Source: Candidatus Saccharimonadota bacterium (GTDB lineage Bacteria > Patescibacteriota > Microgenomatia > UBA1406 > GWC2-37-13). From it: a stretch of DNA of 32,000 bases. A program made the position numbers and the translations under genes. Positions 10,360 to 30,636 of this stretch are shown here, piece by piece; position 1 is the stretch's first letter, and each line of letters opens with the position of its first letter. The notes under the pieces were generated by a model. It did not search any database. It was not told the DNA's origin and saw only the letters and a list, made by a program, of their open reading frames with translations. The stretch spans positions 150,001 through 182,000 of the forward strand of contig CP065004.1 in NCBI GenBank assembly GCA_016700135.1, in the 5' to 3' direction.

Positions 10360-10800
10360 ATGTCACTAGATTTAGTTCCAAGAAGATTACTTTCATTCCC
10401 ATCTATAATGCCTTCAATTTGGGATAATGATGACGATTGGTTTACTGCTCCATCTACCCAAACAGGTTTATCAATTTCTGAGGATGAGCAAAAAGTATAT
10501 GTAGAAGCTGCTCTCCCAGGAATTAATCCAGATAACATTGAAGTTACTTATCAAGATGGTTATGTTTGGATAAAAGGACAACAGCAAGAGGAGGAAAATG
10601 ATAAGCAAAAGAAATACTATCGTAAGGCCTCTAATGCTTTCTCCTACAGAGTTGCCGTTCCTGGTGAAGTTGATTTAAACAAAGAACCAGAAGCATTTTA
10701 TGAGCATGGAGTGATGAAAGTATCCTTCATGAAATCTGAGGCAAGTAAGCCAAAGAGAATCACTATTAAGCAGAAAAAACAGCTTGGTAGTGGAAAATAA
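10360..10800 (+). CDS. Hsp20/alpha-crystallin small heat-shock protein
   Basis: Alpha-crystallin domain (YVEAALPGINPDNIEVTYQDGYVWIKG ... FSYRVAVPGEVD ... YEHGVMKVSF). Strong SD AAAGGAGAA upstream. Confidence 0.9.
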   Translation: MSLDLVPRRLLSFPSIMPSIWDNDDDWFTAPSTQTGLSISEDEQKVYVEAALPGINPDNIEVTYQDGYVWIKGQQQEEENDKQKKYYRKASNAFSYRVAVPGEVDLNKEPEAFYEHGVMKVSFMKSEASKPKRITIKQKKQLGSGK

Positions 10801-14652: not shown

Positions 14653-16265
<1,613 letters not shown>

Positions 16266-16281
<16 letters not shown>

Positions 16282-20606: not shown

Positions 20607-20936
20607 TTACAGTATTCCGTCTCCGACACCGAAAATAAATCCGAGAATCCGGGCGATAAGATATGACAACATCAAAAGGACAAAACCTATTATCCCTGCG
20701 GTCATCTTGGCTTTCCCGCTATTTACTTTGTCTGCATCGCCTCTTGACATCAAAAAGTCATACCCGCCCCAGATCAGTACAAGAAGAAGAATAACGGCCG
20801 CAAAAGGATAGAGAAAGTTAGTCATAACAGTTACCAGATCCGTGAGAGACGTAATTCCTTCCAGCGGACCTTTAATGGTTACGGCTTTACCGTTTTCAGG
20901 TTGTATAACCAATCCTTGGGCGAGAGTGTTTGTCAT
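20607..20936 (-). CDS. Two-TM T4SS-type (TrbC/VirB2-like) pilin candidate
   Basis: Hydrophobic helix, LIWGGYDFLMSRGDADKVNSGKAKMTAGIIGFVLLML, second helix. This is the pattern I recall for the Patescibacteria T4SS_pilin family. There is no obvious N-terminal signal peptide. ATGA overlap with the upstream gene. Confidence 0.55.
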   Translation of the reverse strand: MTNTLAQGLVIQPENGKAVTIKGPLEGITSLTDLVTVMTNFLYPFAAVILLLVLIWGGYDFLMSRGDADKVNSGKAKMTAGIIGFVLLMLSYLIARILGFIFGVGDGIL

Positions 20937-21610
20937 ATTTTCTTGGAAATCATTAACACTGTCTGCAACAAAAATAGTATAAGGGCATGTATCCCCAATG
21001 ATATCAGCAGATAGATATTAATAGCATACACAAAAGCGGAGGTAGCTTCAAGAAGCATGTCCCACTGGACAACTCGTGAAAAGTCAATCTGAAAAATGTA
21101 TATAATTCCGGCTGCAACAATAGCTACAGGAATGAGATATACAATATCAATTAAATCCTGTTTCGAGGAAAACATTGTGGTAGAAAGAATAAATACGAGC
21201 CATCCGACGGTTATTTTCAAAAAGATATTGGAAGATTCAAATATTTGCAGACTAAAAAGCCACCAAAAAAGTAGTAACCCGACAATAACAGGAGCAATTC
21301 CTACAAGGACGCTTCTGACAACATCTTTTTTTTCATAATAAACACTTCCGAGTTTGAGATACCTTCCTTCCCACTGCGGGAATACATGTATATCACGCAC
21401 TTTCAACAAAAGAATTACGGCCATCACGAAATGTGAAAGTTCGTGTATGACTGTTCCGGGAAAGAATATGAAAGCGATCAGACTGTAGACAATCTTTTCA
21501 TGATCAAAAATGAGCCGTAATACCTGAAACAATCGGGTGATACTGAGTCGGGAAACAAAAAAAAGGACTATGAGTTGAAGAATAAATAACCCGACTAAAA
21601 TAAGTTCCAT
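20933..21610 (-). CDS. Polytopic membrane protein with an HExxH zinc-protease motif (S2P/M50-like)
   Basis: PGTVIHELSHFVMA lies within a TM segment, with at least 5 further hydrophobic helices and a possible third-ligand region SSKQDLIDI. Confidence 0.65.
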   Translation of the reverse strand: MELILVGLFILQLIVLFFVSRLSITRLFQVLRLIFDHEKIVYSLIAFIFFPGTVIHELSHFVMAVILLLKVRDIHVFPQWEGRYLKLGSVYYEKKDVVRSVLVGIAPVIVGLLLFWWLFSLQIFESSNIFLKITVGWLVFILSTTMFSSKQDLIDIVYLIPVAIVAAGIIYIFQIDFSRVVQWDMLLEATSAFVYAINIYLLISLGIHALILFLLQTVLMISKKI

Positions 21611-21777: not shown

Positions 21778-24700
21778 TTATGCCGTCTGCTGTTTTGCAG
21801 TACCATCAGCTGTCTGATCGGAAGCGGAACTCTGCTGCGGCGGTACCTCAGCTCCTGGCGCACTGTCAACAATTTGTGGTTTGATCGGTTCGAGCCCGTT
21901 CATTTTCCCGTTTGTCTGCTCTTTTTTGGGCGGTGCGGGAGGTACATCCATCGCCTTGTTCTCTGGTTTCTTTTCGGCAACAGCTTCAGATTTTTCCTGA
22001 GGTACTTCATCCTTCACTTCCTGGACTTCTATTGAGGCACACTTGGAACATATTGTTGTGGCAGTCGGAATGACGTCTGTTTCAAACTTATTGGCACATT
22101 TTTCACAGAAAAACTTGGCATGTCTCATCTTCTGACCGTCCTGGACATCTTCATCTTTGACTTCTTTCAGCTCAATTTTTTCAACATTGAAAATAAATTC
22201 ATCACCGTCAAAGTCTACAATAAGAGTATCACCGGCTTTCACTTTTTGAGCAATAATAAGCTCAGAAATCGGATTTTCAACCAGTTTCTGAATGGCGCGT
22301 CTTAATGGTCGTGCACCGAATACAGGATCAAATCCTTCGCGTACGATTGCTTTCTTTGCTGCATCCGTGACTGAGAAACCAATCTCCTGCTCTTCGAGGA
22401 GCTTTGCCAAAGCTTTCAGCTGAAGATCAACGATCTGAAGCATATGCTTGTATTTCAGCGGCTCAAATACGATGACTTCGTCAAAACGGTTGACAAGCTC
22501 AGGGCGGAAGAACTTCAGGAGTTCGTTCATAACCTTGTCCTTAATCACCTGATACTTCTTCACATCGGTCTGTTCTTCTACCTTTTCTTTTTCCTGTGCT
22601 TCCTTCTCAAGCGGGAAGTTCTTGCCGAAATACTCATCCAATGGTTGCATTTTCCATTCCGTTGCTTTCTGGTCACGATGCCATATATCATTACCCACGA
22701 TAACAATCTCTTTTCCTGTCGGTGTAAACGTATGGATATCCCAATGGGTTGCGGGAAAATTGTCATCTTTTACCGTCTGTCCCTCGAAATACTCTTTCAA
22801 AAGACCCGTCTGCCAGTCAGTACTCCCTGCTTTTCTTCTCCAAAAACGATCTTTGTATGACACAATTTCCATCTCATCAGGACTGAAGGCATGAGTCTTC
22901 AGACGCACCGTCGGCAACTGTTCATCCGGAGCATCAGGCAAGGCATTAATGACTACATTGTCATTGAAATAATCAATCAGATTTGTGACATTCCATACTT
23001 TCGAAGTGGTTGCGGTACGGGAATATATGATATCGCCCGTTGAGATCATTTCCACTCCTTTTGGTGAGATGGCATGAGTGTCATATCCGAATGTCGGGAA
23101 AGACGTGATTTTCGGTTTTTCTTCTGCCGGTTTTGCCTGCTCCTTTACGGGCTGCTCTTTGCCTTCAACAGTATTCTCTTCTTCAGGCTTTTCAGGCTCC
23201 GGTTGTTGCAATGCTTCAGGTTTTTGCGTCGGCATTTTGCCGTCAATTTTCTGTCCTGCAAAATACTCAGTCAATTTATGATCTGCCCAGGACATTTCGG
23301 CTTTCTGATCTTCTTTTTTTTCTTCAGGCTTCTGTTGCTGACCGTTTGTCATATCCAGACTGTTTGCGGTTGTGCCGTTGTCTCTTTCAAAATACTTATT
23401 CCCGATCGTCATAAGTTCACGACCTCTCGGCGTAAAAGCATACGTCGAAATGAGGGTCGGTTCTGCAACTTCCGACTTTCCGCTCTTCAACAGTTCCTTT
23501 TGAATGAGAGGAGTTCCGATGTTTGACGTACAGATCACGACGGTATTCTTGAACGAAATAGTTCGTCCTTTGTTGTCTGTCAAACGGGCATCATCAAGAA
23601 TCTGCAGCAGAATGTTGAAAATGTCAGGATGTGCTTTTTCAATTTCGTCAAAAAGAACGAGTGAATACGGCTTTCGGCGAACGGCCTCTGTCAGTTTTCC
23701 TCCGTCTTCAAATCCGACATAACCGGGAGGCGGCCCGAGAAGCTTTGCCACTTCATGACGCTCCATATATTCGGTCATATCAAATCGGGTTACGGCTTCT
23801 TCTTCATCAAAAAGTACTTCCGCAAGTGTCTTGGCAAGTTCCGTTTTTCCCACACCGGTCGGTCCCAAGAATACGAAACTACCGATCGGACGATTGTTCG
23901 ATTTCAAACCTGCCCGTCCGCGTCTCACGGCTTGGGCGACGGATGCCACCGCACGTTCCTGATCAATCATTCTTTTGTGAATGATGTCTTCGAGGTTTGA
24001 TAATTTGTCCTTCTCAGAAGTACCGATCTTGGATATCGGGATACCGGTTCTTGTGGCAACAATGTCTTTAATTATTTCAGGAGAAACAGCCGTGGTGGTC
24101 TGTGCTTTCTTCATATTGTATTCATCCTGTTTGACTTTCAGCTTGGCCTGTACATCATCAATTTTTGAGCGGAGAATGCGGGCCTTGACCTTTTCGCCTC
24201 TTCTTTCATCTTCCGCAAGCTCCTGATTGAGTTGAGCTACGCGGGTTTCTATTGAATGGATTTCTTCAGGAAGAGAAATGAGCGGCAGACGGACTGCTGC
24301 AGATGCTTCATCCATCAAATCAAATGCCTTGTCTGGAAGGAACCTGTCTCCGATGTACCTTTTTGAAAGTTTTACCGCCAGCTCGATAACTTCATCTGAA
24401 ATTTTTACTTTGTGGAATGCTTCATATTTACTTTTTGTAGCCTTCAGCATCTTGATGGCAGCCTCTTCTGTCGGTTCAGGAACAAGAACTGTCTGGAACC
24501 TTCTTTCAAGTGCCGGATCCTTTTCAATATATTTTCTGTATTCGGTAATTGTTGTTGCTCCGATAAACTGCACCTCACCTCTGGCCAGAGCCGGTTTTAT
24601 GAAATTGGATGCATCCAAGGCACCCTCACCGCTTCCAGCTCCCATCATTGTATGCATTTCATCTATGAACATGATAGCTTCACCTTTACTCGCTTTCAGT

Positions 24701-26211
24701 TCATCAACAACGCTTTTCATACGTTCTTCAAATTCTCCCCGATGAGATGCTCCGGCGACCACACTCGCTAAGTCAAGCTGGAGGATCTTTTTATTGAGAA
24801 GGCTTTCAGGAACCTGCTTTTCAACTATCCGTTGTGCAAGTCCTTCCACGACTGCAGTTTTTCCTACTCCCGGTTCACCGATAAGTGCCGGATTGTTTTT
24901 GATTCTGCGTGAAAGAATGTGTACCACTCTCTCAATAACAGGTGCTCTCTCGACAACAGGATCCAGCTCACCGTCAGCAGCTTTTTGTGTCAAATCAATA
25001 CAATACATCTGCAACGCAGATTTCTGCTTTTGCTTTTTATCGTCTTTTGTTGCCTCTGCTGAGAATACTCCGCCTTTCTTTCCGGTTATTCTTTTGTTGA
25101 TATCTTCTTTCGTGACTCCGAGTTTGACCAGTATACGGGCGCCTACGCCTTCACCTTCTTCATACAAAGCAAGAAGAAGATGTTCGGGGGAAATAAATTC
25201 ATAACCGAGTTTTCGCGCGACAACAAGGGATTTTTCAACTATTTGCTTCACGCGAGGAGACAGTTGCGGAGGGTTCTGACTTTCTTCTTTTTTATATATT
25301 TTCACGAGCTCCTGTTCTACAATCTGCGGCTGAATTTTCAAATCAATAAGGATTTTATAGATCTCACCGTCTGTCAAAAGTCCATGGAGGAGATGTTCAC
25401 TATCCATGTAGATATTTTTTAGTTCTTTTGCTTTTTTGTTTGCTTCGACAAACACAGCGTTTGAACGCTGAGTCAAATGGGTCATGATATCTAAATCATT
25501 TCTTTTCTTGCCGCTCAACGTGGAGTCCAAAACATTTTTCGCGGCAGACGGCTGAACGGAGCCGTCAATAGCCTTCTGACCGTCCTGATTTGCTGCGGGA
25601 TTTGATGTAGTTTCAGGTTTCTGAGTATCTGCTGAGAGTGTACTTTCAGTAGACGTTTCAGTCTTTTCCTTTGCCATATCATCAGGTTTCTGTAATGTAT
25701 TCTGTTCTTTTTTCATTTCAGCATCCATCTTTGTCTCTTCTGCAGGAACAGGTGTTCCCGTTGTATCATTCATTTTCGGCGGCGCCGGCGGCATATCAGC
25801 GGCTTTTACATCTGCCATCTCCGCTTTTTTCATTTCAGCTGCGGCTGGTACTGTGGCCGGTTCTGCCTGATTCACCGCTTTCGGTGGAGGGGTTCCGATA
25901 CCGTTATAAGACTGACCGTTAGGAGGATTACCGATTCCGTTATATGATTGACCGTGGGAAGGGTTACCTATTCCATTGTAGGAATCGCCGTGTGCAGGGT
26001 TTCCGATACCGTTATAAGACTGTCCGTTTGAGGGATTACCGATACCATTGTATGATTGCTGGCCGCTTGGCATCGGCGCATCAGTTTGTTGTGCAACAAC
26101 CTTCGGTTGATTTGATGTATTCATAGTAGGATTCGCGTCAGTAACTGACGTTGTGTCACTTGTATTTGCATTTGGGGTTTGTTTCTTTATAAAATCAAAT
26201 ATACCGGCCAT
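21778..26211 (-). CDS. clpC: Atypical ClpC-type class I AAA+ unfoldase (about 1477 aa) with N-terminal repeats, a D2 insertion and a C-terminal zinc ribbon
   Basis: Two Clp_N repeats ([30 protein letters not shown]). D1 has [15 protein letters not shown] and IMFIDEMH. Short ClpC-length M domain. D2 has [62 protein letters not shown]. Start set at M8 (26211) because a consensus promoter lies inside the longer ORF. Confidence 0.9.
25885..26064. repeat. 36-bp coding tandem repeat x5 ((G)[12 protein letters not shown])
   Basis: Units align at period 36 on the + strand (e.g. ...ttccgataccgttataagactg...). The peptide is conserved while the DNA units differ at many positions. Confidence 0.85.
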
Positions 26212-26217
26212 ATATTC

Positions 26218-26246
26218 ATTATGAGCAAGCATTTTCCAAATGTCAA
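26218..26246 (-). promoter_or_regulatory. Sigma70-type promoter of the clpC-like operon, leaderless geometry
   Basis: Minus strand: TTGACA (26246-41), 17 nt, CATAAT (26223-18), 6 nt, ATG (26211-09). Confidence 0.6.
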
Positions 26247-26256
26247 CATCAGATAT

Positions 26257-27030
26257 ATGAAGAAAATATCAATACTATTACTCTTACTTTTTTTGCTTTT
26301 TATGAGCTCGGCGACTTATTCGAGAGCCTCAAATGAGGAAAGCTCTGCAGAAAAGGTAAAAAAGCCTGCAAGGAATCTTTTTTACTTTTTTAAAGACATC
26401 GGTAATAATTCTTCTCCAGATACGGGTGCCCCTGATCCAACCTTACCACCAGACGCTTCACCTGCGCCTACTTATGGCCCTCCTCCCGCCCCGATTTATG
26501 ATACACAACTTGCTAACCTTATGGAAGCAATCAAACAGAAGGCTCACAGTAACTGTACTATGTTCGGGACCGGAATAGTAGCGACACAAAACAGTTACTG
26601 CGTCCAGCCTATCGCAAATGTCTCAGGGATCCAAAACGGTCAATCTGTTGTCAACGATATGAAATACTCTGCCGATAATTACTACTATCTGCAATGTGTA
26701 GGTTGCGCCGTCGCCATGGCAAAAGCAAACGGGAAACCGTACCTCGGATGGGGTAATGCAAAACAGCATGCGGATCAATCTGTCTTGGGATACACATATG
26801 TGCCTTACACTTCAGCTTCTTCGGCATATTCAGTCAAACCGGGCTCTTTGTTTATTCTGACAGGCGGGACATACGGACATATCGGAATGGTGTCTGAAAT
26901 TATTTATGACGAGAATAATAGACCTCATTCATTCCGAGGCTTTGAATGTAATTACCAGGCGAATGGGTATGTCAGCCACGAAAAAACCTGGGCATTTGAT
27001 CAGATAGCCGGTTTTCAGGTACCAAACTAA
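26257..27030 (+). CDS. Secreted CHAP-domain peptidoglycan hydrolase (H1)
   Basis: Signal peptide [24 protein letters not shown], leader [17 protein letters not shown], Pro-rich linker. CHAP triad context LQCVGCAV ... GHIGMVSEI ... FECNY. Confidence 0.8.
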
Positions 27031-27031
27031 C

Positions 27032-27757
27032 ATGAAACAAAAAAAATTAATTATTATTCTTGCAGTTGCCGTAATAATACTTCTAATAACTTTATTTTTT
27101 CTTAACATGAGAAGAAATGCGGGAACAGACGTCAAAGAGGAAATTGATACCCTTCCTACGGGAATTATTGTTCCTACCAACACTATAGAAAATAATGAAC
27201 TGGATATCGTATCCGTTTCACCATCAGACAGAGCACAAACTGTCAGTGTAAATACCTCAATCCGCATTACATTTTCCCGAAAACCCAAAGAAGAAGAAAT
27301 TGATTTTTTCATGGGTCCAGACGCAATCTACTCTCAGGAAATCAAAGATAATGTATTGATTATCACACCCTGGAAACCGCTCGCCGAAGGTACATTGTAC
27401 ACATATAGTATCAATTTCCCACAGGATAACCAAAAAGTCCGTCTGTATCGATTTGTAACTGAAGGGACACTGAGCGAAATTCTTCCTGATACGCGATCAA
27501 ATGACCTCATAGAAGAAGTTGAAGAAAAAGAACGGGTTAATCATCCTGACATATATATTACTAATAGAACACCTTTCGAAGACAGTACATTTTCAATCAG
27601 ATCTGATTTTGAACCCAAAACCCCTGCTCACTATTATTTTATCGTTACATCAAAAATCAATGACCGAAGTACTGTCGAGCAGGCTGTTAATGCTTGGCTG
27701 CAGCTTCAGGGCCTTACCGAACAACAAATTAACGGCCTGGATGTCCGTTATCAGTAA
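27032..27757 (+). CDS. Single-pass membrane protein with an Ig-like (SbsA_Ig/Big_5-type) ectodomain (M1)
   Basis: N-terminal TM LIIILAVAVIILLITLFFL. SVSPSDRAQTVSVNTSIRITFSRKP...VLIITPWKPLAEGTLYTYSI. Starts 2 nt after the H1 stop. Confidence 0.7.
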   Translation: MKQKKLIIILAVAVIILLITLFFLNMRRNAGTDVKEEIDTLPTGIIVPTNTIENNELDIVSVSPSDRAQTVSVNTSIRITFSRKPKEEEIDFFMGPDAIYSQEIKDNVLIITPWKPLAEGTLYTYSINFPQDNQKVRLYRFVTEGTLSEILPDTRSNDLIEEVEEKERVNHPDIYITNRTPFEDSTFSIRSDFEPKTPAHYYFIVTSKINDRSTVEQAVNAWLQLQGLTEQQINGLDVRYQ

Positions 27758-27760
27758 CAT

Positions 27761-28585
27761 ATGAAAAAAATTATTATCTTCTTCCTATCCCTGCTTGCTG
27801 TCGTTCAATCCGTTCGTGCCGAAATACCGATGATTGACCGGGGCGACGGGTATGCAGTTTATCCAACTTCTTCAAGCAAAAAAAGTGTTGAAAAAATTAA
27901 AGAAGTACCTCGTAATTTATTTAATTTTTGGGATTTTAACGAGGATAATAATCCGGATGAAATTCAACCCATCCCGACTCAGCAGCCATCCTTCATATCT
28001 GGGACACCTGTACCGTCTCCAGTACCGACAGCAGCGCAGACAAACCCCACTCTTCCTCCTGCTCAAACTACAGCCGGCTGTCCGGATGCAAATACCAGAA
28101 TTCATATTTCAGGTACGCGTTATCGACATCTCAATAGATATCTTCCCTGCGACCGGCCGCGCATGCTAGTGATCCATTGGTCTGCCGGTTGGTCATCGGC
28201 ACAGGCAACATTTGACGTGCTTAATAATCGCGACCGTTCATGTCAGTTTGCAGTTGATGACCATGAAGTGATACAAATGCTGAACCTTTATCCTAACGCC
28301 GTCGAGCGGGGATGGTGCGCTGGTGGAGATGCCAATACGGGATCTATCAACTTTGAGATCACCGGTGCATGGTTTGATGAAGTACTGCTGCAATCAGGTT
28401 CGGAAAAAAACAGACAGCTTATGATCATGACGGACAAGACCGTAGATATCGCCTGCAGAATGATACAAATGTACAGTATACCGAAAACGGCAATTTACGG
28501 ACATTATCAACTTCAATCAGGAAAATCTGACCCGGGAGTATCCTATTTACAATTTTTTAAGCAAAAAGTAAACGAGCGATGTTAA
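27761..28585 (+). CDS. Secreted N-acetylmuramoyl-L-alanine amidase (Amidase_2/PGRP fold) (H2)
   Basis: Signal peptide ...VQSVRA, leader EIPMIDRGDGYAVYPT...EKIKEVPRNLFNFWDF, Pro-rich linker. VIHWSAG (Zn His), INFEITG, YGHYQL..GKSDPG (AmpD-like His/Lys/Asp). Confidence 0.85.
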   Translation: MKKIIIFFLSLLAVVQSVRAEIPMIDRGDGYAVYPTSSSKKSVEKIKEVPRNLFNFWDFNEDNNPDEIQPIPTQQPSFISGTPVPSPVPTAAQTNPTLPPAQTTAGCPDANTRIHISGTRYRHLNRYLPCDRPRMLVIHWSAGWSSAQATFDVLNNRDRSCQFAVDDHEVIQMLNLYPNAVERGWCAGGDANTGSINFEITGAWFDEVLLQSGSEKNRQLMIMTDKTVDIACRMIQMYSIPKTAIYGHYQLQSGKSDPGVSYLQFFKQKVNERC

Positions 28586-29181
28586 ATTTCATTGATCTGC
28601 AGGAAAAAAAATATACAATCATCATTGCAGTATCTTCAGTAGTACTGATCCTTATTCTGGTGATATCGGGAATACTGGTCCGAAATCGCAGTAACCCCAC
28701 GGAAACTGTGTCGGGTACGCCAATTAATCCAACGGGCGTACAGACTGCACAGATTTCACCGACTGAAATTCCTGCTAACTATTATGTATTACCTACTCCT
28801 CTATCAGATGAAAATGTGCCGACGGCACCACCAACACCTGTTCCTCAAGAAGGAGATATCATACTAGACGGCATCGCAGTAAACGATTTTAAGGAAAATG
28901 CAGAACGAACTACTGTTGACGGCGATACCGTCCTAGCAGAAACAAGTAATTACCAGATTGTATTTTATGAAAAGACACAGGAGTTTACCATCAGCCTGAT
29001 AGGCACAGATTTTGAAAAATCCAGAATCGCAGCCGAAAATGCTTTCCTCGTAAACCTGGAGATAGATCGTGCGAATGCCTGCAGACTTTTCGTGAATGAA
29101 TATGTGCCCAACACCGTCAACAATGAACACAGCGGTGAAATATTACCCTTAAGTTTCTGCTATCATGAACATGATGAGTAA
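28579..29181 (+). CDS. Single-pass membrane protein, unknown ectodomain (M2)
   Basis: TM YTIIIAVSSVVLILILVISGILV, then a Pro/Thr linker. Overlaps the H2 stop by 7 nt. Confidence 0.7.
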   Translation: MLNFIDLQEKKYTIIIAVSSVVLILILVISGILVRNRSNPTETVSGTPINPTGVQTAQISPTEIPANYYVLPTPLSDENVPTAPPTPVPQEGDIILDGIAVNDFKENAERTTVDGDTVLAETSNYQIVFYEKTQEFTISLIGTDFEKSRIAAENAFLVNLEIDRANACRLFVNEYVPNTVNNEHSGEILPLSFCYHEHDE

Positions 29182-30079
29182 ATTTGTTACCGGAATAGTA
29201 ATTACTTTTGTATTTCTGGTCGTAACCTCTGTAATATTTGCCGAGATGCCTATGATCGATCGGGGAGACGGATATGCCGTTTATCCCACACGAAAGAAAA
29301 CTACAATAGAAAAAATAAAAGAAGTTCCGAAATCTCTTTTTGATTTGTTTGATGGTTCGGGGACCTCTGGGAATAACCAACCCACTCCTATACCAACTTC
29401 CGAAGCGGGCATCACACCGGGTCTAACGCCCGGGGTAAGTACCACACCAATCGACGCTTCAAGCCCGATCGATAATATCCTTCAGGGAAGTGAAGTTACC
29501 TATTCACCCGCAATTATTGCAAGCGTAAGGAACTGTATGACGAATGCGAATGTATATAAAATTGCAGAGCAGCGGACAGGAGTATCATGGAAAATCATCG
29601 CAGGAATTCACTATATGGAAGGGAACTGCGGGAGCAATAAATCCTGCGTCAGCGGCAGACAGCTCGGTGTCAATGAACCCGATCTGTACGGTAATTGTTC
29701 TGGAGGAGGCGGGGAAGGCCGGCCGGTTCCTCTCGGAGGGGGAGGATGCGGTTTTAGGAATCTGGTTGACAGCTGCATCTATGGAGGAAATCACCTCAAA
29801 GGAAAAATTCAGGGAAGAGTTCCTCAAACTCTGCAGGAACTCGCCTATGCGCTGGGAAGATACAACGGACTCGGAAACAGAAACTGCGGAAAAACCCCCT
29901 ATGCACACTGCCCGCCTTCGTTTGACAATGATGATCATATTTACCCGATGAGCCAATTTGATAAGAAGCATGAGACAATGTATCTTGTGTACTGTGCCGA
30001 CTATACGACATGTAATCCGCCGCGAATCTTTCAAAGAATCGGAGCTTTGAGTGTTGCAAGGATCCTGACAAACTTATGA
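29165..30079 (+). CDS. Secreted Cys/Gly-rich protein, possibly a lysozyme-like/lytic transglycosylase (H3)
   Basis: Signal peptide ...TSVIFA, leader EMPMIDRGDGYAVYPT...EKIKEVPKSLFDLFDG, Pro/Thr linker. WKIIAGIHYMEGNCG resembles an SLT-type catalytic Glu context, and there are 12 Cys. The catalytic assignment is tentative. Confidence 0.6.
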   Translation: MNMMSKFVTGIVITFVFLVVTSVIFAEMPMIDRGDGYAVYPTRKKTTIEKIKEVPKSLFDLFDGSGTSGNNQPTPIPTSEAGITPGLTPGVSTTPIDASSPIDNILQGSEVTYSPAIIASVRNCMTNANVYKIAEQRTGVSWKIIAGIHYMEGNCGSNKSCVSGRQLGVNEPDLYGNCSGGGGEGRPVPLGGGGCGFRNLVDSCIYGGNHLKGKIQGRVPQTLQELAYALGRYNGLGNRNCGKTPYAHCPPSFDNDDHIYPMSQFDKKHETMYLVYCADYTTCNPPRIFQRIGALSVARILTNL

Positions 30080-30636
30080 AACTAACTAACAAAAAAATTA
30101 TTATATTGATCTCTGCTCTGGTCGGAGTACTTGTTCTGATAATCTTAATACTGAATGTGATAACACAACGGAAAGAAACCGCTACTCCTGAGACAAATCC
30201 CGAAGTTATAAAGAAGGAAGTACAAAAGGTAATTGAAATTACGGAAGTTCCCCGGGTTCCTGATGAAAAGGGAGGAGGGATTGATACTGATTCTCCTGAA
30301 GTAAAGACCTCCGTTCAGTCATTACAAAAGCTTCAATCAGCGCTTCCCTTTTATAAAATTTTCACAACTGAAGACGGAACAGAAGTCGAAGTTTCCATTC
30401 CTCCTACATCAACAATTTCAAATGAGTGGACTTTACTCGTCCATATTTTCGGCCCGGACTATCAGATTCCCGAAGATTCGTCCGATTATGAGACTCAAAA
30501 ACAAGCATTTCTGGCCGGAGTAAGTGAAGTTATGCTTTTTCTCGAAGAACAGGAAATCAATCCTTCAGAAATAATCATCCAATGGGGCGACAGAGCAATC
30601 ATAGGTGACCGGTCTGCCAAATGGCTTTCGGAATAA
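30076..30636 (+). CDS. Single-pass membrane protein, unknown ectodomain (M3)
   Basis: TM IIILISALVGVLVLIILILNV. ATGA overlap with the H3 stop. Confidence 0.7.
   Translation: MKLTNKKIIILISALVGVLVLIILILNVITQRKETATPETNPEVIKKEVQKVIEITEVPRVPDEKGGGIDTDSPEVKTSVQSLQKLQSALPFYKIFTTEDGTEVEVSIPPTSTISNEWTLLVHIFGPDYQIPEDSSDYETQKQAFLAGVSEVMLFLEEQEINPSEIIIQWGDRAIIGDRSAKWLSE

Follow-up and report, generated by a model that had tools for sequence, protein, structure and literature searches.

The window analysed here, a stretch of 32,000 nucleotides from contig CP065004.1 (assembly GCA_016700135.1, positions 150,001 to 182,000 of the forward strand), encodes a ClpC-type Hsp100 unfoldase of Candidatus Roizmanbacteria (Microgenomates; Candidate Phyla Radiation, CPR). 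In this protein, the segment of the second AAA+ module (D2) that carries the ClpP-docking tripeptide in Bacillus subtilis ClpC is replaced by a 309-residue insert, and the four repeats of this insert very probably form a single four-bladed, hemopexin-like beta-propeller in each subunit. The explanation that we favour, and consider moderately probable as a whole, is that of a ClpP-independent unfoldase with a propeller binding platform on a helical stalk. The enzyme would thread its substrates without canonical ClpP docking, each propeller would be held on a helix of ~34 residues, and six copies would surround the face of D2 at which the substrate exits, where they may offer a selected binding platform to a partner protein, to the substrate or exiting chain, or to a small ligand.

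Insertion point and loss of the ClpP tripeptide

Few molecular machines have been studied as thoroughly as the Hsp100 unfoldases, whose D2 loop is the accepted marker for distinguishing ClpP-coupled from stand-alone enzymes: a surface loop with a ClpP-docking tripeptide is present in ClpC, ClpA, and ClpX. The ClpC-like gene of the window (21778..26232, minus strand; identified by Pfam and by phmmer against the PDB) specifies an open reading frame (ORF) of 1484 residues, in which Pfam recognizes Clp_N, AAA (D1), AAA_lid_9, AAA_2 (D2, aa 781-915), and ClpB_D2-small (aa 1259-1339), and no domain between aa 915 and aa 1259. The phmmer comparison aligned aa 253-911 with residues 6-666 of B. subtilis ClpC and aa 1221-1349 with residues 676-804 (E 2.6e-228). 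Residues 657-676 of B. subtilis ClpC, confirmed by an exact-match query, read TSNVGASELKRNKYVGFNVQ, and VGF occupies positions 671-673. Given these boundaries and this reading, the insert (aa 912-1220, nt 22573-23499) stands exactly in place of ClpC residues 667-675, RNKYVGFNV. A reading made from the sequence alone had placed a four-repeat insertion at the position of the docking loop, and the alignment bears this out, as it does the landmarks on either side, ICTSNIG (sensor-1, nt 23515-23535) and a 22-residue segment at nt 22477-22542 (KDKVM), ~320 aa apart.

The same sequence-only reading saw no IGF- or VGF-like loop in the insert, and the pattern [LIVM]G[FLIMYW] indeed has no match there. 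In the whole protein it matches only LGY at aa 342 in the N-domain, VGF at aa 839 within the pore-loop motif GYVGF, and IGF at aa 1284-1286; the protein thus fails to show the tripeptide between sensor-1 and FRPEF that defines ClpC. When the core was searched with the insert deleted, the 120 closest relatives listed (69-86% identity, named Roizmanbacteria, Woesebacteria, or Microgenomates) comprised 99 that carry an insert of 257-346 aa, 18 that hold there no more than a charged linker of 41-60 aa, and three that could not be classified. We regard the 18 insert-less proteins as orthologues because they share the locus and the gene order of the window gene. None of them has an [LIVM]G[FLM] tripeptide between sensor-1 and FRPEF (an example of this region reads TSNIGTQVIQDELLKEKDLEIKEETEEEIKRDKEKYEGIKGKVM), and across the 120 relatives such a match occurs in just 19, at varying and non-conserved positions. 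Since orthologues at the same locus lack both insert and tripeptide, the propeller did not displace the loop; judged from these sequences, the loss of the tripeptide is a property of the whole clade and was not caused by the propeller. The tripeptide is an established marker dividing ClpC, ClpA, and ClpX from ClpB-type enzymes (PMC10149685). Given that the entire clade lacks it, with or without a propeller, the ClpC-like enzyme is likely to be ClpP-independent.

Two candidates for a hidden ClpP motif were rejected. The IGF at aa 1284-1286 (nt 22369-22386) is modelled as a beta-strand of the D2-small domain rather than a loop (pLDDT, the predicted local confidence, >90) and has 'LSI' as its aligned counterpart in B. 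subtilis ClpC. The xGF or xGY before blade 2, or the VGFP of six relatives, does not qualify as a relic ClpP loop either: it occupies the start position of a hemopexin repeat, where the consensus is EFP and the residue preceding the glycine varies (F, L, Q, H, Y, or none). VGFP itself may be the 'G-hydrophobic-P ... IDAA' opening of hemopexin-type repeats, although this is not proven.

The motor, in contrast to its docking site, retains the expected motifs. The large D2 subdomain up to sensor-1 (23500..24030, minus strand, as are all features of this gene) was delimited by Pfam, phmmer, motif location, and structure superposition, and it includes Walker A (23842-23865), the pore loop GYVGF (23698-23724), and Walker B (23632-23661). 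The remainder of D2 with the D2-small domain follows at 22183..22506 (Pfam, phmmer, model) and contains sensor-2, GARPLRR (22297-22317). As Walker A and B in both rings, sensor-1, sensor-2, and the D2 pore-loop tyrosine are all intact, the sequence predicts a motor that should be active and able to thread substrates.

A predicted hemopexin-like propeller

The four repeats proposed from the sequence can be aligned in a common register, which the repeats of 14 relatives share as well. Their consensus is ..THaFSP.G.EII..G...W.R......W....L.DYF, and pairwise hhalign comparisons among the four repeat positions gave probabilities of 97.0-98.4% (E 1e-10 to 4e-15). AlphaFold2 models of aa 897-1258, computed from a multiple sequence alignment of 15 sequences, predict four strands and a short helix for each repeat, with pLDDT values of 88-94 in the blades and disordered spacers. 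A larger model of aa 735-1360, based on 106 family sequences, reached a mean pLDDT of 87, a predicted TM-score (pTM) of 0.82, and 92-97 in the blades; its AAA+ part superposes on the second nucleotide-binding domain (NBD2) of ClpB with TMt (target-normalised TM-score) values of 0.84-0.92, and a helix of ~34 residues leads from blade 4 back into D2. Foldseek searches of the PDB returned as top matches almost only four-bladed propellers of the hemopexin fold (E 5e-7 to 1e-5, TMt 0.65-0.72), the best being the cow-pea protein CP4 (3oyo; E 5.4e-7, TMt 0.67), together with LS24 (TMt 0.70), the hemopexin-like (PEX) domains of matrix metalloproteinases (MMPs), vitronectin, and haemopexin. A PD40/TolB-type repeat, to which the 'FSPDG'-like motif might have pointed, was rejected, given that Pfam offers no support at E values up to 10 and that the model closes with four blades. 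With one predicted propeller per subunit, a hexamer would display six propellers, not the 24 separate modules previously envisaged.

The insert can be followed segment by segment. A partly helical linker connects sensor-1 to blade 1 (aa 907-928, 23449..23514; model helix H173-182, pLDDT 77-94). Strands A-C of blade 1 (aa 929-951, 23380..23448; alignment, models, and hhalign) are separated from strand D and a short helix with the motif W....L.EYF (aa 980-998, 23239..23295; alignment and model) by a disordered low-complexity spacer of variable length (aa 952-979, 23296..23379; pLDDT <50, proportion of nonsynonymous differences, pN, 0.14). A disordered spacer rich in Glu, Lys, and Pro follows between blades 1 and 2 (aa 999-1043, 23104..23238; model and divergence). 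Such spacers had been assumed to separate all repeats, which holds inside blade 1 and between blades 1 and 2 only, the 2-3 and 3-4 linkers being short. Blade 2 (aa 1044-1092, 22957..23103; alignment, model, and hhalign) is joined to blade 3 by a linker of 16 residues (aa 1093-1108, 22909..22956) that is near-invariant among relatives and ranks with the most conserved segments of the insert. Blade 3 (aa 1109-1157, 22762..22908), with KDRFWRRK...DWxTG, is the most conserved blade, and blade 4 (aa 1158-1205, 22618..22761) leads into the predicted stalk; both blades are defined by alignment and model. The stalk helix (aa 1206-1242, 22507..22617; model H474-507, pLDDT 88-92) connects blade 4 to D2, ends at FFRPE, and can be aligned to ClpC residues 676-698 from aa 1221 onwards.

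The link to hemopexin at the level of sequence is transitive. A profile of blades 2-4 matched 48 proteins among 1.84 billion representative sequences, and ~20 of them are insert-bearing ClpC-like proteins, so that the repeat does not belong to the make-up of ordinary ClpC. Most of the others have signal peptides together with DUF2961 or GH39/42-like domains. The modules outside ClpC contain four repeats reading IDAAYF..G.YTVIKGDRYWYR......WYTNTL.SAY, and on four of five of them the top Pfam match is Hemopexin (PF00045), whose threshold of 21.3 bits is passed by P0056 (25.4 bits) and P0042 (24.0 bits); our repeat profile in turn detects P0042 with E 1e-9 and P0056 with E 3.7e-5 among the 1.84 billion representatives. 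Fold and transitive sequence evidence therefore agree that the insert is a divergent hemopexin-like propeller. The earlier reading had named, as a result that would speak against it, a repeat that turned out to be a known, functionally unrelated domain common in ordinary ClpC proteins: the fold and superfamily are known, PF00045 being reached only transitively, yet the domain is not common in ClpC.

The nearest relatives of the repeat outside ClpC are glycoside-hydrolase-like CPR proteins of the DUF2961 type (P0030, P0032, P0034, P0043) and the GH39/42-like type (P0038, P0046, P0053, P0055, P0057, P0059), which are extracellular, bear signal peptides, and hold the module C-terminally or within the hydrolase rather than in an ATPase. 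The four-repeat module is also found in P0056 and P0042, among secreted CPR-type proteins, and Pfam Hemopexin barely detects modules of this kind. These sequences suggest that the secreted CPR modules constitute an unannotated bacterial hemopexin-like family. Established PEX propellers (haemopexin, the C-terminal domains of MMPs, vitronectin, and the legume PA2 albumins CP4 and LS24) share with the insert an architecture of four tandem repeats of ~45 aa and four blades, at only 8-10% sequence identity. Animal PEX domains have a disulfide between blades 1 and 4; the insert contains no cysteine and thus no such bond. Since no signal peptide is seen, the propeller of the ClpC-like protein is presumably cytoplasmic. 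It further differs from PEX propellers by residing inside an ATPase domain and by the long disordered spacers within and after blade 1. If correctly assigned, it would extend the hemopexin fold to an intracellular, domain-inserted setting, and the modules above would extend it to secreted CPR glycosidase-like proteins.

Distribution, constraint, and surroundings of the gene

Using the sequence of the blade 2-3 linker as a pattern, and with each GTDB species represented by a single genome, we located the insert in at least 96 loci, mainly from Candidatus Roizmanbacteria. The ORF is intact in ~70 genomes, and contig L003 matches the window at 98% identity. Among complete or near-complete Roizmanbacteria genomes, CAWJTN010000001.1 (1.23 Mb), MGBH01000001.1 (1.22 Mb), OZ246401.1, and DCTC01000001.1 carry the insert, and CP066689.1 does not. 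Counting blades with a repeat hidden Markov model yielded four in 47 proteins, five in 19, and 8-10 in eight; a count of five probably reflects a blade 1 that is split by its own spacer. The propeller module is tandemly duplicated in eight species genomes (L045, L059, L064, L068, L073, L076, L079, and L081), as well as in the metagenome contig L001, with 8-10 blades and inserts of 529-564 aa, which implies two propellers per subunit. The first homologue matches were C-terminal fragments and might have indicated a split gene, an intein, or a programmed event. This possibility was rejected: the apparent split in L002 is a single frameshift at Walker B and that in L001 a run of Ns at an assembly gap, and the impression of split genes is thus an artefact.

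To compare constraint along the protein we used the relative L004 as the reference, at a distance where synonymous sites are nearly saturated (proportion of synonymous differences, pS, 0.53-0.70). The pN value was 0.018 for the ATPase core, 0.027 for the blades, 0.143 for the spacers, and 0.17-0.23 for the N- and C-terminal tails, corresponding to dN/dS ratios of ~0.014 for the blades and ~0.011 for the core. On this basis the blades are under purifying selection almost as strong as that on the ATPase motor, whereas the spacers drift.

Outside D2 and its insert, several features set the protein apart. Conservation of the N-terminus MAGFFDFIKK across the family suggests that translation may in fact start at Met8 (nt 26211). 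The N-terminal extension is predicted to be disordered (aa 1-252, 25477..26232; pN 0.17 against L004) and contains five copies of a 10-residue repeat visible in the sequence (25894-26058); the motif Y[SNG]G[IV]G is found in 82 of the 99 insert-bearing proteins vs only four of the 18 insert-less orthologues. In the D1 pore loop (aa 493-502, 24727..24756; aligned to KYRGEFE of ClpC), a histidine replaces the tyrosine that ClpC and ClpB have there, and this histidine recurs in 119 of the 120 closest relatives; the D2 pore loop has kept its tyrosine. Towards the C-terminus, a CxxC...CxxC zinc ribbon (aa 1376-1398, 22039..22107; weak match to Pfam Zn_ribbon_8) is shared by 111 of 117 relatives, propeller-bearing or not, and is followed by a disordered tail. 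The disordered C-terminal tails of the divergent relatives P0015, P0018, P0019, P0023, and P0045 end in NPLE(T/S)(Y/F)F(G/A), which resembles the blade-closing L.EYFG; the window protein lacks this tail motif.

Downstream of the ClpC-like gene lies a gene for a polytopic membrane protein of 225 aa with PGTxxHExxH and a conserved SxxD (20933..21610, minus strand), whose match to Peptidase_M50 (E 0.045) is far under the Pfam threshold. It lies co-directionally behind the ClpC-like gene in 47 of 80 loci, at gaps of 3-570 nt, and HExxH is present in 47/47 members. It overlaps by 4 nt with a gene (20607-20936, minus strand) for a protein resembling type IV secretion system (T4SS) pilins (Mbov_0395-type, E 5e-5), which is found downstream in 70 of the 80 loci. 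The insert-less orthologues have the same order: ClpC, sometimes a small ORF, a 224-aa HExxH membrane protein, and the T4SS-pilin-like gene, beyond which an amino-acid-kinase/methyltransferase gene and a RecF-like gene follow. Upstream, and divergently oriented, runs a series of envelope genes (26179-30636, plus strand) with a CHAP domain, Big_5, an Amidase_2 peptidoglycan hydrolase, and several family-less ORFs, one of which (29165-30079) is conserved, frequently as two copies, in 55 of the 80 loci. A small heat-shock gene (HSP20/alpha-crystallin) is located at 10360-10800 (plus strand), 11 kb from the unfoldase gene. Between 11600 and 16300, the window contains a low-GC block (0.30-0.34) with a CfrBI-like restriction enzyme and an N4/N6 methylase fused to HEAT repeats; it adjoins a gene for a large serine recombinase (14653-16281), which overlaps tRNA-Ser(CGA) (16099-16186), and together block and recombinase are probably an integrated mobile element. 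No clpP gene was found in the window or in 86 related sequences, which is uninformative because these 1.28 Mb represent only ~2% of each genome.

Possible roles of the propeller and comparison with known Hsp100 systems

That the propeller is conserved, is predicted to sit on a helical stalk, and occupies the site facing ClpP in ClpC is the basis for viewing it as a binding platform at the exit face, a role to which we assign slightly less than even chances. Haem, polyamines, and sugars are among the molecules bound by relatives of the fold, and the same module is attached to CPR glycosidase-like proteins. Several observations weigh against the explanation that we favour. The propeller fold is a prediction, and its placement relative to the D2 ring and pore is extrapolated from the position of the loop in ClpC. 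The insert of the window has no Pfam match at E values up to 10, and the repeat profile none among PDB sequences. In a rough, midpoint-rooted neighbour-joining tree without support values, insert-less orthologues arise in at least five places within the insert-bearing radiation, so that the propeller is dispensable in some lineages; the pattern suggests, in an only indicative way, that it was gained once and lost several times. No conserved neighbour specific to the insert was found, the synteny being common to the insert-less orthologues. Six close relatives carry VGFP directly before blade 2. Finally, ClpP has been reported to be frequent in single-cell genomes of Patescibacteria (PMC12361377), and a non-canonical contact with ClpP is therefore possible.

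Other roles can be envisaged for the same domain. As the substrate- or aggregate-binding module of a stand-alone disaggregase, it might recognize clients that are misfolded or aggregated, or keep hold of the chain as it emerges, a role comparable to that of the additional N-terminal domains in ClpG and ClpL. The absence of the tripeptide across the clade would fit, as would the Foldseek match to MMP and vitronectin domains, which are protein-binding modules, the HSP20 gene in the window, and the fact that ClpB, ClpK, and ClpG are the best partial NCBIfam matches. However, Hsp100 enzymes normally recognize substrates at the N-terminal/D1 entry face and not at D2, the scores for ClpK (722.8 bits) and ClpG (711.1 bits) stay far from their cut-off of 1900, and the insert-less orthologues apparently manage without a propeller; we thus consider this role rather unlikely. 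Unlikely, too, is an alternative dock for a protease or translocon, a concrete form of the different docking partner suggested by the sequence-only reading, in which a third ring of six propellers would couple the D2 exit pore to a partner other than ClpP. Closest at hand as possible partners are the co-operonic HExxH protein, which resembles intramembrane metalloproteases, or else the products of the surrounding envelope genes (T4SS-pilin-like, cell-wall hydrolase). The insert occupies the protease-docking position, the pTM of 0.82 fits a defined rather than floppy placement, and both the HExxH gene, with its invariant motif and weak M50 match, and the pilin-like gene recur downstream at the frequencies given above. 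Yet the same neighbours follow the propeller-less orthologues, and the linkage may amount to no more than a gene order conserved in small genomes; the M50 match falls far short of the threshold, and any partner interaction is a candidate only. The narrower proposal, in which the third ring lies beneath D2, replaces the ClpP interface, and couples the unfoldase to the HExxH protein or to an envelope apparatus, strikes us as improbable; if true, CPR bacteria would connect an AAA+ unfoldase to a downstream device in a new way.

The propeller might instead act on the enzyme itself, by binding its own Y(S/N)GIG tail repeats or the MAGFFDFIKK peptide and thereby promoting inactive storage or hexamer linking, as M-domains do in ClpC resting states. 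Such assemblies are known for ClpC (PDB 9qqr, 9qcl, 9qrw), and Y[SNG]G[IV]G is enriched in insert-bearing proteins. This association is confounded by phylogeny, though: two of about five insert-less clades (P0137; the group of P0140, P0145, and P0153) keep the motif, and binding between propeller and tail is hypothetical, leaving self-regulation a distinctly doubtful option. Coupling to ClpP through a non-canonical contact, be it the G-hydrophobic-P before blade 2, the IGF of D2-small, or the zinc ribbon and tail, could draw on the reported frequency of ClpP in Patescibacteria, on the VGFP of the six relatives, and on the retention of aa 1284-1286 as [ILM]G[FL] in many relatives. It is nonetheless very unlikely: the residue before the glycine is not conserved, the window protein has TSFP and FGY rather than a flexible arm bearing a hydrophobic-Gly-hydrophobic loop, a confidently predicted beta-strand contains the IGF, and six propellers of 22 kDa at the loop sites would be expected to hinder a ClpP ring. 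A neutral passenger, that is, a functionless domain tolerated in a permissive loop or an artefact of assembly or annotation, might have explained the existence of insert-less orthologues and the database entries that resembled split genes. With the apparent splits traced to one frameshift (L002) and to Ns (L001), the insert present in at least 96 species genomes, and blades constrained nearly like the ATPase core while spacers drift, the selection analysis largely refutes this notion, which we find scarcely credible.

For the ClpP-independent unfoldase with a propeller platform that we favour, the taxonomic setting is relevant. In a host-dependent lineage with small genomes, spanning at least 96 species genomes, a ClpC orthologue has lost the marker of ClpP coupling, and most members carry a conserved propeller at that very site. 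This constitutes a natural experiment on what can attach at the ClpP-loop site of an AAA+ motor. The propeller, the near-invariant loop between blades 2 and 3, and the basic patch of blade 3 further provide a concrete, testable way into the protein quality control, or the envelope biology, of CPR bacteria.

Among known systems, the window protein is closest by sequence to ClpC, as represented by B. subtilis ClpC, the MecA/ClpC/ClpP system of Staphylococcus aureus, and ClpC1 of Mycobacterium tuberculosis. It shares with them Clp_N, two AAA+ modules, an M-domain of ClpC length, and D2-small, and the alignment of its core to B. subtilis ClpC runs from one end to the other. The short M-domain is evident from the single uninterrupted alignment of aa 253-911 to ClpC, whereas alignments to ClpB split at around aa 676-713. 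Unlike ClpC, the protein has no VGF/LGF tripeptide but a 309-residue propeller in its place, a histidine for the tyrosine of the D1 pore loop, a disordered N-terminal extension of 250 aa, and a C-terminal zinc ribbon.

The proposed stand-alone action likens it to ClpB, ClpL, ClpG, ClpV, and ClpIb. ClpB/Hsp104, ClpG, ClpK, ClpL, and ClpV (TssH) are double-ring Hsp100s without a ClpP loop that thread alone, and none of them, to our knowledge, has an additional domain within its D2 module. The M-domain of ClpB is long, in contrast to the ClpC-like one of the window protein, and the NCBIfam cut-offs were missed throughout, with 924 bits for ClpB (TIGR03346) against 1232 and 692 for ClpV against 885. 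Searches of the literature on hemopexin in connection with ClpC or with Patescibacteria gave no description of a propeller inserted in the D2 module of an Hsp100, and the loop-less, propeller-bearing ClpC-like unfoldase appears to be an undescribed variant of this well-studied machine. A parallel is provided by ClpIb of Actinomycetota, which resembles ClpC, has a short M-domain, lacks the LGF motif, and has been inferred to be ClpP-independent (PMC10149685). Both the short M-domain and the missing motif are shared by the window protein; ClpIb, however, belongs to a different phylum, its loop region has ~5 aa and no inserted domain, and the likeness is one of features alone.

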